From positions 104,174 through 168,173 of the forward strand of contig JBAXXP010000001.1 in assembly GCA_037127815.1 (NCBI GenBank): DNA of 64,000 nucleotides, in the 5' to 3' direction. The position numbers and the translations under genes were made by a program. Source of the stretch: a bacterium. GTDB taxonomy: Bacteria > Patescibacteriota > Minisyncoccia > Phycocordibacterales > CAIZLB01. The notes under the pieces were generated by a model. The model saw only the letters and a program-made list of their open reading frames with translations. It ran no database searches and had not been told where the DNA came from. Shown in pieces: positions 8,548-12,198 of the stretch; within the stretch, counting starts at the first letter, position 1, and the number at the start of each line of letters is the position of its first letter.

Positions 8548-9741
8548 TTAGGCTACGATCTTAGTTACAACGCCGGCTCCTACAGTTCTACCTCCCTCGC
8601 GAATAGCGAATCTTGTATTGTCTTCAAGAGCAATTGGGGCTACCAATTTAACCTTGAAAGTAACTGTATCACCAGGCATAACCATGTCTACGCCCTCCTT
8701 TAGAGTAACCTCTCCTGTTACGTCAGTTGTACGTACGTAGAACTGAGGTTTGTAACCTGAGAAGAATGGAGTGTGTCGACCGCCTTCTTCCTTCTTAAGG
8801 ATATAGACTTCTGCTTCAAAATCTGTATGTGGCTTAACTGATCCTGGCTTTGCTAGAACTTGACCTCTTGCAAGATCATCCTTCTTAACACTTCTTAGTA
8901 GAATACCAGCGTTGTCTCCAGCTTGACCTTCTGACAATTGCTTGTTGAACATTTCAATACCTGTAACAACTGTTTTTTGAGTATCATGTAGTCCGATGAT
9001 TTCAATTTCTTCACCGATCTTGATTATACCTTTTTCAATTTTACCTGTAACAACTGTTCCTCTTCCTTCAATTGAGAAAATATCTTCAATAGGCATAAGG
9101 AAAGGCTTATCAGTCTCTCTAACTGGTTGTGGAATATAGTTATCTAGAGCGTCAACTAATTCAAGAACCTTCTTTGACCATTCATCATCAATACCTGGAG
9201 CTTCAAGTGCCTTAAGCGCTGAACCTCTGATAACTGGTGCATCTTCGTCAAATCCGTTCTTTGCTAGAAGCTCTCTGATTTCTGCCTCAACTAGGTCAAG
9301 CATGTCTGCATCATCAACCATGTCACACTTGTTCATGAATACAACAATCTTTGGAACACCAACTTGCTTTGCAAGTAGAACGTGCTCGCGAGTTTGTGGC
9401 ATAGGTCCGTCAGTAGCAGCAACAACCAAGATTGCGCCGTCCATTTGAGCAGCTCCTGTGATCATGTTCTTGATGTAGTCGGCGTGGCCTGGTGCATCAA
9501 TGTGAGCATAGTGTCTTGCGTTTGTAGTGTACTCACTGTGTGAAAGTGAAATTGTAATACCACGAGCCTTTTCCTCTGGGGCCTTGTCAATATCTCCGAT
9601 TGACTTAATTGTAGCCTTCATACCTGCTCTGTTAAGAACATTAAGAATAGCTGCAGTTAATGTAGTCTTTCCGTGATCAACGTGTCCAATTGTACCCACG
9701 TTAACGTGAGGCTTTGAACGATCAAAAATTTCTATTGCCAT
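8548..9741 (-). CDS. tuf: Elongation factor Tu
   Basis: 397 aa; [20 protein letters not shown]-motifs. Confidence 0.98.
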
Positions 9742-10028
9742 ATATTTGCTTGATAATTAAATGAATATATCGATATTTATATGGATATCTCCATAAATCT
9801 TTATACTCACCAATTAATAAAAATTAAATTAATAAGTTTCTAAATTTTATCCCCAGTGCTTCTCTCAGTAGTTTAGCTTAATTATGTTTGATTCTTAATA
9901 CTGCCTTAAATCAAAAAGAAGATTGGGATAAAAAACCGCCAAAAGGCGTCTAATGGATAATATCAGAAGGTGGGGGTTTGTCAATGTCAAAGCTATAACC
10001 TACCCCCCCCCACTTAAGGTTAATCAAC

Positions 10029-10090
10029 CCTGAATTCTGTTTCGGTCTTTTGACCATCGTCAGACAAGATACACATCTTATGACAGAACC
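10029..10090 (-). ncRNA. Hammerhead ribozyme, type III (HHR2): UUCUGUC|AUAAGAU-GUGU-AUCUUGU-CUGACGA-U-GGUC-AAAA-GACC-GAA-ACAGAA
   Basis: read on minus strand: GUC cleavage triplet, 7-bp stem I with tetraloop, CUGANGA box, 4-bp stem II with AAAA loop, GAA, and 6-bp stem III ACAGAA/UUCUGU; one extra U between A9 and stem II. Confidence 0.6.
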
Positions 10091-10136
10091 CGTTCACTCA
10101 ACGGGCAGAGTTGCACAGTTTATGTGCTTTATTACG

Positions 10137-10376
10137 CTATTCACATAACATTTCGAGGTATTTATCATCAAAATTTTCTACCTCATTCCAATCTTCACCT
10201 TGTCTTTTGACAAAAATGAAGTCTTCAACCCTTAAGGTTGTATTTGAAAAGACGAAGGCACAGCCTTCCTCTAGGGTCTTAACGGTTTGGAAATAAGCCA
10301 TATAGGCAAATCCACCACCCGGGGCAAAACCCCAGCACTTAACCCATGTTACCTTTGCTTTTTGTGTGTTTTGCAT
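10137..10376 (-). CDS. Small hypothetical ORF (79 aa, MQNTQKAKVTWVKCWGFAPGGGFAY...) lying between the two hammerhead ribozymes
   Basis: ATG with AGGA 13 nt upstream on minus strand; no recognised family; coding status unproven. Confidence 0.3.
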   Translation of the reverse strand: MQNTQKAKVTWVKCWGFAPGGGFAYMAYFQTVKTLEEGCAFVFSNTTLRVEDFIFVKRQGEDWNEVENFDDKYLEMLCE

Positions 10377-10439
10377 AGTTATAAACGTCCTAACTTTAGA
10401 GATTAAGGCACTCGTAGCTACACAAAACGTTAAAAAGAA

Positions 10440-10494
10440 CCACTGTTTCGCTTTTTTAAGCTCATCAGTCGAAGTACGCACTTCGAGACAGAGG
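10440..10494 (-). ncRNA. Hammerhead ribozyme, type III (HHR1): CCUCUGUC|UCGAAGU-GCGU-ACUUCGA-CUGAUGA-GCUU-AAAA-AAGC-GAA-ACAGUGG
   Basis: read on minus strand: perfect catalytic core CUGAUGA...GAAA, GUC cleavage site, 7-bp stem I with GCGU loop, 4-bp stem II (G10.1-C11.1) with AAAA loop, stem III formed by flanks. Confidence 0.75.
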
Positions 10495-11384
10495 ACGGAT
10501 AGAACGTCTATCCGTGATTTACTACAAGTACTCTATCGAGCAGTTGTAATTTCTGTTCAAAAGGTAGTTTTCTCTACCTCGGCTTTTCATCTCGCGATAA
10601 AAGCAGAACTCAAAGCAATTATTTGCTTTGAACGTACTCGCGATAATCCGCAAGGGACATCACGAGCCCGTCAACGACGACGTAGGTCATGGTTTATACT
10701 TTTTGAAATGTTCATTGCTATTAACACACTGTATTTTGGCTAATATTTATTAATTCTATTTAAGGACTCAAAATCAGCTCGATTTTGGATTAAATTAACA
10801 GTGTTTACTTATCTGTGTTGTAGTATAGCCATGTTCATATTTTTGTCAAGATGTTTTGACACTTTGTTTTTATTTTGTCATTTGTACCCTTTTATATAGC
10901 CATATTTAATCAATATAAAAGTAAATTGATAACAACAAAACTCTATAAAGGGTATACAAAATTAGAAAATATATTATATTATGTTTTTTTATATTGCCAA
11001 TCTAATTACCCAAGAATAAGGTCGTTTTAGCTTAAATCTATTAAATGTCTAAATTGCTTGACAAAAGAATCAGACATGCTACATTGTGATACGGAATTTG
11101 ACTGTACTTTCGGCTATAAAGCCGACAGATCAAAGTGTTCTAACCCAAAAGTGCAATGCCCGATTAACCCTAAAGGAAAGGTGGCTTGTCGTGAACCTAG
11201 CCGGGTTTTCACGACAGGCCTCTGAGTACTAAAAAAGGGACTTGTTTATAACTTCTGGGCATAGTAACCGCAAGCACACCATATACACCACCACCACAAT
11301 GCATGATTAATTAGAATGATTGTCCTTTTTGAAAACCCTTCATATTTGTAAACCTCCCCACCAAGGTAGTTCACAAACAAAAAA

Positions 11385-11412
11385 AGCTCGGTTCCTACCC
11401 AGGAACCGAGCT
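11385..11412 (-). terminator. Rho-independent terminator after TrmB-like gene (AGCTCGGTTCC-TACCCA-GGAACCGAGCT plus T-run)
   Basis: 11-bp stem followed by TTTTTTT on minus strand, 20 nt after stop. Confidence 0.6.
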
Positions 11413-11433
11413 AATTTTTTACCTAATTTTTTC

Positions 11434-12198
11434 TTATTTACCTTCCTCTATATTTTTAAAGGCTAATTCAAACAAAGAGGTTAGGGTTTCCGCAAAATCC
11501 TTATTATAAACAATCATTCCACCCAATTTTGATCCCAAAGTAGCTATTCTTACCTTATTGTTGTAAATACTAATATCGCAACTTAAAGGATACTTTTTAC
11601 CATCTACGAACAACCTATTCCCCAAGTTAGCACTTCTGTCAATTTCCCCTTTTGAATACGTATATATTGATTTACCGGAAATTTTCTTATCTACCCTTAT
11701 TTTACGGAATCTATTACTATCGGCCTCTGAAAACAGACTTTCTATTAAATCCTTTGGATAAATCATATACATAGTGCCGCCTTTGTCATCTTTTGATTGG
11801 AAAAGCTCCTCAGTCATACTTATAACGCCCTCTTTTCCTTCAAAAAATTTAACTACAGGCTTTTCAGCATCCTCTCTGTAAATACTCTTAAGTTGTGGAA
11901 CTATATCCTTAAGTCTTTTACTTTGTTCATCCAGCTGTATTTTACGTCTTTCAATATAAGTCTCCAGTCTTTCTGGTGGTTCAGCTTGGTATCTAACCTT
12001 TTTATCAACTAAAACTTCAAATATTAGCCCTTTATTTGAAAGCGATTCAAGTACTGGATAGATAGTTGTACGATTAATTTTAGTCTTCTCAGCTAAATCA
12101 AGTACAGAATCATTGTCTACCTCCAAAAGAGACAGGTAAACCTTTGCCTCTTTCTCTGATAAACCTAAATCTTCAAGATATTTTTCAAACATAAGCAT
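11434..12198 (-). CDS. TrmB-family transcriptional regulator (N-terminal winged HTH plus TrmB C-terminal domain)
   Basis: MLMFEKYLEDLGLSEKEAKVYLSLLE...TTIYPVLESLSNKGLI wHTH; ORF runs to 12282 but overlaps upstream gene, so start at 12192/12198 preferred. Confidence 0.7.
   Translation of the reverse strand: MLMFEKYLEDLGLSEKEAKVYLSLLEVDNDSVLDLAEKTKINRTTIYPVLESLSNKGLIFEVLVDKKVRYQAEPPERLETYIERRKIQLDEQSKRLKDIVPQLKSIYREDAEKPVVKFFEGKEGVISMTEELFQSKDDKGGTMYMIYPKDLIESLFSEADSNRFRKIRVDKKISGKSIYTYSKGEIDRSANLGNRLFVDGKKYPLSCDISIYNNKVRIATLGSKLGGMIVYNKDFAETLTSLFELAFKNIEEGK

Follow-up and report, generated by a model that had tools for sequence, protein, structure and literature searches.

The 64-kb stretch of DNA analysed here (the window) comes from a bacterium whose EF-Tu sequence points to the Paceibacteria group of the Candidate Phyla Radiation (CPR). 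The minus strand carries, in order, rpsL, rpsG, fusA, a gene for a 360-aa coiled-coil protein, a gene for a TrmB-like helix-turn-helix (HTH) protein, a terminator, ~1.7 kb devoid of long open reading frames (ORFs), tuf and the S10 operon. The ~1.7 kb contains two complete type III hammerhead ribozyme motifs, HHR1 and HHR2, both on the minus strand and in the same orientation. They had been recognized in the initial annotation, and their cores, stems, loops and minimum-free-energy (MFE) folds bear this out at the coordinates originally assigned. The cleavage sites predicted there (10487/10486 and 10082/10081) likewise hold: cuts after C10487 and C10082 would delimit a unit of 405 nt, which contains an ORF of 79 codons (ORF79) with an AGGA ribosome-binding site 12 nt upstream. 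HHR1 is itself preceded by a conserved unit with a micro-ORF. The features are collected in Table 1.

Table 1. Features of the hammerhead locus and of related loci; positions are those of the window unless another locus (L) is named.
Feature	Position	Strand	Basis or remark
HHR1, type III hammerhead	10494-10440	minus	predicted cleavage C10487/U10486; sequence, MFE fold, covariance models
HHR2, type III hammerhead	10091/10088-10035/10032	minus	predicted cleavage C10082/A10081; sequence, MFE fold, covariance model
ORF79, 79 aa, predicted OB-like beta-barrel	10376-10137	minus	homologs, purifying selection, structure model
5'-UTR hairpin, ORF79 start codon in its 3' arm	10428-10368	minus	MFE folds of window and L132 units; three lineages
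3'-UTR hairpin A, GCACA-UAAAC-UGUGC	10127-10113	minus	kept in 4/4 ORF79 lineages
Hairpin B, CCCGUU-GAGUG-AACGGG, abutting HHR2 stem III	10105-10089	minus	compensatory change in L124, L129
Hairpin abutting HHR1 stem III	10515-10495	minus	sequence; covariation in L240, L199, L153, L212
Micro-ORF unit: micro-ORF and ~100 nt of structured RNA	10692-10525	minus	nhmmer, codon pattern, covariation
Micro-ORF, 23 codons, MTYVVVDGLVMSLADYREYVQSK	10690-10619	minus	stop codon in hairpin loop
Micro-ORF unit copies	L240 865-1033; L199 539-706; L153 6390-6214; L212 6048-6224		
Putative promoter-like site, TTGACA-16-TATACT	10849-10822	minus	consensus scan, 11/12 matches
Second putative promoter-like site	11000-10973	minus	consensus scan
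Strain-specific island: 360-aa coiled-coil gene, TrmB-like gene, hammerhead array	13427-9985	minus	comparison with relatives
TrmB-like HTH gene	12198-11437	minus	Pfam TrmB
Strong terminator after TrmB-like gene	11412-11385	minus	terminator scan
Conserved tuf promoter, TTGACA-16-TGnTATTAT	9984-9957	minus	genome backbone, outside the element
TrmB-like ortholog upstream of same-strand hammerheads	L138, L147, L160, L185, L188, L211, L212, L223, L234, L249		
Twister-P1 candidate	L124 392-455		53 bits, below gathering score
tmRNA-like tRNA domain, 84 nt, without mRNA part	L124 858-941		Rfam tmRNA 74 bits, above gathering score; no ARAGORN call
Hammerhead	L124 1430-1484		
tmRNA-like tRNA domain, 65 nt	L153 6449-6513; L212 5922-5986	minus (L153); plus (L212)	above Rfam gathering score; ~60 nt before micro-ORF unit; Saccharibacteria metagenome-assembled genomes

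A hammerhead core is made up of C3-U4-G5-A6-N7-G8-A9, G12-A13-A14 and an A15.1-U16.1 pair, with any nucleotide except G at position 17. Every core position is intact, with C at position 17, both in HHR1 (CCUCUGUC/UCGAAGU-GCGU-ACUUCGA-CUGAUGA-GCUU-AAAA-AAGC-GAA-ACAGUGG; minus strand, the slash marking the predicted cut) and in HHR2 (GGGUUCUGUC/AUAAGAU-GUGU-AUCUUGU-CUGACGA-U-GGUC-AAAA-GACC-GAA-ACAGAAUUC; 10091-10032). Stem I has 7 bp in both motifs and is closed by GCGU in HHR1 and GUGU in HHR2, while stem II has 4 bp and an AAAA loop. The MFE structure of each segment is a three-way junction in which stems I and II are closed and stem III is open.

A full-length hammerhead pattern matched the window twice and 100 shuffled windows not once, and a hammerhead descriptor likewise gave 0 matches per shuffled window. 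A covariance model (R1), built from 30 viral hammerheads without any sequence from the window and run with filters off, scored HHR1 at 62.9 bits (E ~7e-14) and HHR2 at 57.0 bits (E ~2e-12), whereas the third-best match in the 64 kb reached only 11 bits. A chance origin is therefore excluded by the shuffle controls together with the R1 scores. Between the two motifs, six base pairs of stems I and II have changed in a compensatory manner, and the core is identical. Compensatory changes are also found in the HHR2-type hammerhead of three other lineages that carry ORF79; the cleavage triplet there is GUC or GUA, both of which are permitted in hammerheads. By sequence, HHR1 and HHR2 are genuine type III hammerheads, and both are predicted to self-cleave.

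ORF79, which the initial annotation had called at the same position, is a real gene under purifying selection, as judged from its homologs. A word-indexed protein search matched it only to itself; when 1.8 billion cluster representatives were searched exhaustively, a single homolog (P0004) came up, and a profile search added two more (P0006 and P0007). ORF79 is 44-66% identical to its homologs. The differences between lineages fall mostly at third codon positions, with an uncorrected pN/pS of 0.32-0.47 and pS near saturation. A fourth candidate, the 1491-aa repeat protein P0005, was dismissed as only a 27-residue stretch matched. No match to ORF79 was found in Pfam, PHROGs or PADLOC, in annotated phages (tblastn) or in viral contigs (protein patterns). 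The structural model has an OB fold that resembles RNA-binding domains, and the protein is possibly RNA-binding; Foldseek searches of the model against PDB and BFVD gave weak matches only. The Logan and JGI gene callers start the gene at a GTG that yields 114 aa (10137-10481, minus) and reads through HHR1. The homolog alignment backs the 79-aa start, which is that of NCBI, over the 114-aa one.

The search of metagenomes for relatives, proposed along with the annotation, recovered ORF79 together with its hammerhead in three further lineages, with covariation. Each of the four known lineages has two hairpins (A and B) behind the stop codon and, ~45 nt past that codon, a hammerhead of the same architecture. 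The 3' untranslated region (UTR) and the ribozyme are better conserved than the coding region. By these alignments the four lineages keep gene, UTR hairpins and downstream ribozyme together as one module. A probe made from the 3'-UTR retrieved one extra contig from the metagenomes searched; the genome and viral collections gave nothing. The upstream side is more variable. The window and L131/L132, whose unit measures 391 nt, have a hammerhead there; the contig of the P0004 lineage (L124) has the downstream hammerhead only, with a tRNA-like element upstream of the gene, and a further contig (L129) ends right where the upstream hammerhead would stop. The 5'-UTR hairpin, of 11-22 bp, has arms that differ among the window, L129 and L132 yet still pair. 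Sequestration of the ORF79 start codon in this hairpin suggests translational control.

An nhmmer search recovered the micro-ORF unit upstream of HHR1 in four further CPR genomes (E 1e-46 to 1e-51), always with a hammerhead 32-34 nt later and a hairpin before that hammerhead. The micro-ORF, of 23-25 codons, is open in all five sequences, its variable sites being distributed 7/4/13 over the three codon positions, and the loop of a covarying hairpin contains its stop codon. The RNA of the unit combines several covarying hairpins with invariant single-stranded stretches; 17 of the 40 predicted pairs show compensatory changes, though in five sequences only. It has no match in Rfam. Since 10692-10525 is a conserved unit that opens with a putative micro-ORF, HHR1 would be intercistronic rather than merely leader-removing, and the array reads micro-ORF unit, HHR1, ORF79 unit, HHR2. 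The unit shares 83-86% DNA identity with a Saccharibacteria-labelled metagenome-assembled genome (MAG; L240) and an unclassified MAG (L199), L153 and L212 being more distant. Such identity between a Paceibacteria-like genome and these two points to recent horizontal transfer, or to mis-binning. The stretch aligned at this identity is 10443-10708 of the window, matching 854-1113 of L240 and 528-748 of L199.

Hammerheads of the same build occur well beyond this genome. A pattern scan of viral contigs gave more than 120 loci, and many of the hammerheads found share the architecture of the window, with a 7-bp stem I closed by a GUGU-type loop and a 4-bp stem II closed by AAAA or GAAA. Their positions follow simple rules. 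In the viral loci 70 of 89 hammerheads are intergenic, the flanking genes are co-oriented in 148 cases versus 23, and the hammerhead begins a median of 36 nt past the upstream stop codon and ends ~35 nt ahead of the next start. The 32 nt preceding it fold at a median of -12.7 kcal/mol compared with -2.7 at random positions (p 1e-25); the corresponding hairpin in CPR loci has -8.2 kcal/mol versus -3.4 for controls. A stable hairpin abutting the 5' strand of stem III is a feature of most members of the subfamily; it might protect 3' ends or stack on the short stem III.

A stricter pattern (7-bp stem I with GNGU loop; 4-bp stem II with RAAA loop; CUGUC...GAAACAG) was applied to one genome per prokaryotic species and gave at least 120 loci (L138-L257). 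Among the matches listed, 85 of the 102 taxon-named loci (~83%) belong to CPR taxa: Saccharibacteria, Paceibacterota, Parcubacteria, Minisyncoccia, and Kaiser-, Nomura-, Giovannoni-, Taylor-, Wolfe- and Kerfeldbacteria. The listed loci carry 171 hammerheads. Forty-two loci are multi-copy, all but two of them (40/42) being single-strand arrays, and the distances between copies group around 285-945 nt, a run including as many as five hammerheads. Same-orientation hammerheads bracket single small genes in the window, in L131/L132, in 15 viral loci and in at least 42 CPR loci. The CPR loci are not simply prophages, because their neighbours include ordinary chromosomal genes such as those for an aminoacyl-tRNA synthetase, a helicase and a ComM-like ATPase.

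The shared fold is maintained by covariation. In an alignment of 125 family hammerheads, pairing holds in 97.2% of the cells and compensatory change is seen in 13 of 16 pairs, values that none of 500 shuffles reached; this alignment was fitted to the covariance model, which in itself favours pairing, and slid registers of it gave at most 48% paired. The inner part of stem III reads CUGU/ACAG in 235 of 259 members, or in 67% once one pattern-selected copy per locus is dropped. These four inner pairs are nearly fixed while stems I and II vary freely.

Hammerheads are not the only elements found in such gaps. The 3-kb phage-like contig that carries the P0004 homolog of ORF79 (L124) holds, in three successive intergenic gaps, a twister-P1 candidate, a tRNA domain and a hammerhead, and in two Saccharibacteria MAGs (L153 and L212) a tmRNA-like tRNA domain precedes the micro-ORF unit. 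To judge from these arrangements, tRNA-like, twister and hammerhead elements may be interchangeable processing elements in related arrays. In mitochondrial tRNA punctuation, structured RNAs between cistrons act as cleavage signals. The likeness is that tRNA-like domains in related loci fill positions held elsewhere by hammerheads; the difference is that tRNA punctuation uses RNase P and RNase Z, whereas cleavage here is predicted to be mostly autocatalytic.

The tandem arrangement had led the initial annotation to suggest a viroid- or retrozyme-like circular RNA, an idea that the properties of the unit do not support. The doubly cut 405-nt unit would be joined end to end, by RtcB or by hammerhead ligation, into a circle that might be translated or mobile. 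We regard this as improbable. Tandem same-strand hammerheads are predicted to leave 5'-OH and 2',3'-cyclic phosphate ends, the chemistry of RtcB-type ligation, and the units of 405 nt and of 391 nt (L131/L132) are structured beyond the level of shuffled sequences (z -4.4 and -5.9). However, the 405-nt unit encodes a conserved protein under purifying selection. The MFE folds of both units are branched rather than rod-like, with 62-66% of the bases paired, and circular closure adds no stability. The unit is also single-copy: the 64 kb hold only two hammerheads, there are no flanking direct repeats, and the P0004 lineage lacks the upstream hammerhead altogether. Circular products of such tandem arrangements have been sought, and none were found (PMC3088659).

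The annotation had further argued that joining the ends would recreate a hammerhead across the junction. The ends of the window unit can indeed form a 4-bp hybrid stem III, and 80% of 71 tandem pairs can form one of at least 4 bp, but so can 88% of random pairs taken from different loci. As CUGU/ACAG is nearly fixed across the subfamily, the recreated hammerhead is a by-product of a family trait and no evidence for circles. In the P0007 lineage (L132) the two stems III differ (UGCU/AGCA and CUGU/ACAG) and the 3' end UUCUGUA cannot pair with the AGCAAG of the upstream ribozyme, so that end-joining would not recreate a hammerhead there. Retrozymes and viroid-like RNAs resemble the locus in their tandem type III hammerheads, a unit of a few hundred nucleotides and ligatable end chemistry (PMC4918200, PMC7761336). 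They differ in being non-coding, highly paired and multi-copy, with circles observed experimentally (PMC4918200, PMC7761336), and retrozymes are bounded by long terminal repeats with primer-binding sites and polypurine tracts and by target-site duplications, hallmarks that the window unit does not have. A wider proposal, in which CPR gene units in general would be circularized through the fixed CUGU/ACAG, each 3' end docking on its own 5' ribozyme body to give a DNA-encoded, translatable or transmissible circular counterpart of retrozymes and viroids, has in our estimate a slender chance of being correct.

The DNA that carries the array appears to be acquired. The initial annotation had described a 1.7-kb non-coding insertion splitting the str operon. 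A hypervariable interval does lie there, but the 1.7 kb are neither all non-coding nor all insertion: they hold ORF79, the conserved micro-ORF element and ~245 nt of conserved tuf promoter and leader, and the island itself includes two more genes. Homology to relatives with a 92%-identical EF-Tu ends at the fusA stop codon (13428) and returns at 9984/9985, at the -35 box of the tuf promoter, which makes the island ~3.4 kb long. In the junction alignment HHR2 ends within ~20 nt of the right border. The same interval in the relatives contains one 133-aa ORF (L135), three ORFs including one of phage-type Bro-N (L136) or Fic/AAA genes (L134), and no hammerhead was found in it in any of these three. 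On this comparison, fusA and tuf enclose a hypervariable hotspot in the Paceibacteria lineage studied here. In the relatives the S10 operon, too, carries accessory genes, which lie between rplB and rpsS and encode a TrmB-like protein, a periplasmic binding protein and a methyltransferase.

The G9/C9 hairpin that had been annotated 3' of HHR2 does not exist. There is a G9 run (10011-10003) but no C9, and its sole partner is a C5 run (9976-9972) inside the conserved spacer of the tuf promoter. G9 is the lengthened form of a G4-5 run found at the same junction in relatives. Within 9984-9925 (minus), a short GC hairpin followed by U6 (9948-9930) lies at about +1 of the tuf promoter and is kept in relatives with variation in the loop. 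It could be a 5' stabilizer, an attenuator or a terminator of upstream read-through. As a candidate terminator of the array it has only 4 GC pairs; it is not called by the terminator scan and is part of the conserved tuf leader.

It might be asked whether the ribozymes simply mark the borders of a mobile cassette, in which a CPR phage or integrative element would exchange hammerhead-bounded units as modules, with processing secondary to this or a by-product of it. Several observations are in keeping with this. Homology between the ORF79 lineages starts near the hairpin preceding the hammerhead and stops right after the downstream hammerhead, with different flanks; the micro-ORF unit is followed by a hammerhead in L240 and L199 as well, with no ORF79 homolog; the hotspot holds the phage Bro-N gene in one relative; the P0004 homolog is located in a phage-like contig; and the island border falls beside HHR2. 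On the other hand, no integrase, transposase, reverse transcriptase, phage structural gene or terminal repeat was found in the island and no repeats at its boundaries, and a blastn comparison of its non-coding DNA with phages gave one insignificant 50-nt match. Homologous recombination would need longer cores than those conserved here, and most homolog-bearing contigs are too short to set borders. As the explanation of the locus we consider the cassette unlikely, and it is in any case compatible with RNA processing rather than an alternative to it.

The array is set downstream of the TrmB-like gene, and this order is conserved. Orthologs with 45-55% identity occur in 11 of the at least 120 CPR-rich loci, and 10 of these 11 have same-strand hammerheads, the first one 1.0-2.0 kb downstream, compared with 943 nt in the window. 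No close ortholog was found in 1.09 Mb of viral loci. In the other loci, an apparent conserved protein ORF between the TrmB-like gene and the first hammerhead was rejected, the matches being translated hammerhead sequence. We make no claim for a general enrichment of TrmB-like genes near hammerheads, which is ~2-fold over a small background, and rely only on the oriented synteny of the close orthologs.

This synteny could suggest a regulated switch, in which cleavage or translation is controlled by the TrmB-like protein, by binding of the OB-fold protein to the RNA that encodes it, or by micro-ORF translation that opens or closes neighbouring helices. The positions of the ORF79 start codon, inside a conserved hairpin, and of the micro-ORF stop codon, in a covarying hairpin loop, would suit such control, as would the resemblance of the predicted OB fold to RNA-binding domains. 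Nevertheless, no alternative pairing was identified that would disrupt the hammerheads, regulators of the TrmB family bind DNA and are common in these genomes (a background of ~1 per 35 kb), and the argument is drawn from anatomy throughout. A switch of this kind seems quite improbable to us.

The explanation that we favour, and hold to be likely, is intercistronic mRNA processing: on this view, small genes on horizontally acquired DNA in a CPR chromosome form an array that is punctuated by hammerheads. The order of elements is TrmB-like gene, terminator, promoter(s), micro-ORF unit, hairpin, HHR1, ORF79 unit, hairpins and HHR2. Transcription of the minus strand would start from one or other of the two promoter-like sites (Table 1), and each hammerhead would fold and then cut co-transcriptionally. 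Cleavage at HHR1 would part the micro-ORF RNA from the ORF79 mRNA, and cleavage at HHR2 would part the latter from read-through toward tuf, uncoupling the array from the tuf transcript. No convincing terminator lies between HHR2 and the tuf promoter to prevent such read-through. The 3' end of each upstream product would consist of a stable hairpin and then ...CUGUC bearing a 2',3'-cyclic phosphate, and downstream products would begin with a 5'-OH and a compact ribozyme body of stems I and II. The outcome would be separate RNAs for single genes, insulated from their context and with ends that are probably shielded from exonucleases, in the manner of the engineered hammerhead insulator RiboJ in E. 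coli.

Some points weigh against this explanation. The HHR2 core has one extra U, between A9 and G10.1. Stem III of HHR1 comprises only 4 bp, with two further pairs past a mismatch. Scoring with Rfam Hammerhead_3 (RF00008), suggested at the outset as a check, fell short: in a local permissive scan HHR1 reached 44.2 bits (E 6e-8), below the gathering score of 48.5 bits, and HHR2 was not reported, although the independent R1 model found both significant. The promoter of the array is a consensus match only, and the placement of the ORF79 start codon in a hairpin means that a simple view of 'more expression' may be too naive. Finally, the role of prokaryotic hammerheads is regarded as open in the field (PMC6155905).

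The Rfam scores should be seen in the light of the subfamily. At the gathering threshold, Rfam reports four tRNAs and no ribozyme in the whole window, and its permissive scan of 9700-11500 gave no further ribozyme class. In 13 loci of the subfamily just one hammerhead reaches the gathering score; the Rfam threshold largely misses this type III subfamily. As for the extra U, it is kept in three ORF79 lineages, and viral members of the family have comparable 1-nt insertions after A9, beside a 5-bp stem II.

The low Rfam scores, the extra core nucleotide and the absence of the locus from close relatives might also be taken to mean that the motifs are decaying, functionless remnants of a phage insertion. 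This is very improbable: all catalytic positions are intact in both hammerheads, compensatory changes maintain the stems across lineages with 44-66% protein identity, and the 3'-UTR and hammerhead are more conserved than ORF79.

Intercistronic processing has precedents. Multiple close hammerheads flanking small, non-conserved ORFs, linked to phages and with their role left open, have already been described (Perreault et al. 2011, PMC3088659; reviewed by de la Pena et al. 2017, PMC6155905), and for tandem hammerheads that flank prophage genes efficient cleavage is documented both in vitro and in E. coli (PMC3088659). Like the window pair, these clustered prophage and bacterial hammerheads have the same orientation, lie a few hundred nucleotides apart in intergenic positions and bracket small ORFs of unknown function (PMC3088659, PMC6155905); the known clusters reside on acquired or phage-related DNA, and the role proposed for them is the cutting of a polycistronic transcript into single-gene RNAs. 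The window differs in its host, a CPR bacterium (Patescibacteria), and in a context with no recognizable prophage. It also differs in its use of one type III subfamily (7-bp stem I with GNGU, 4-bp stem II with RAAA, CUGU/ACAG stem III) that is under-detected by Rfam, with a hairpin before each copy and the array downstream of a TrmB-like gene.

RiboJ, an engineered type III hammerhead of sTRSV with an added hairpin, offers a functional parallel (PMC6206723). It cuts off the leader and leaves a 5'-OH and a structured 5' end, as predicted here, and it standardizes and raises expression of its gene, with transcript up ~2-fold and protein up 2-10-fold (PMC6206723). RiboJ is synthetic and has its hairpin downstream of the ribozyme, whereas the hairpin here is upstream and would come to lie at the 3' end of the preceding RNA. 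Unlike RiboJ, the window also has a second ribozyme, predicted to trim the 3' side of the gene.

The locus is thus a typical, well-preserved case of the known hammerhead-punctuated small genes, and the category is unchanged by it. In the literature searched there was no relevant report joining hammerhead or other self-cleaving ribozymes with CPR/Patescibacteria, and no description of a CPR-concentrated, uniform type III subfamily, of the upstream hairpin, of the TrmB synteny or of the micro-ORF unit. CPR concentration, upstream hairpin, TrmB-like synteny and micro-ORF unit are leads from pattern-selected samples, not established results.

With its two-ribozyme cassette and a module kept in four lineages, the locus is an unusually clean test case for the role of hammerheads in bacteria and phages. 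The compact hairpin-plus-hammerhead modules might serve as natural insulator parts. Should arrays of this kind, with their regulator gene, their hairpins and ribozymes and an occasional twister or tRNA-like element, prove to be a general means by which operon transcripts are cut into single-gene RNAs, they would form a distinctive layer of gene expression in the poorly understood, mostly uncultivated CPR bacteria.

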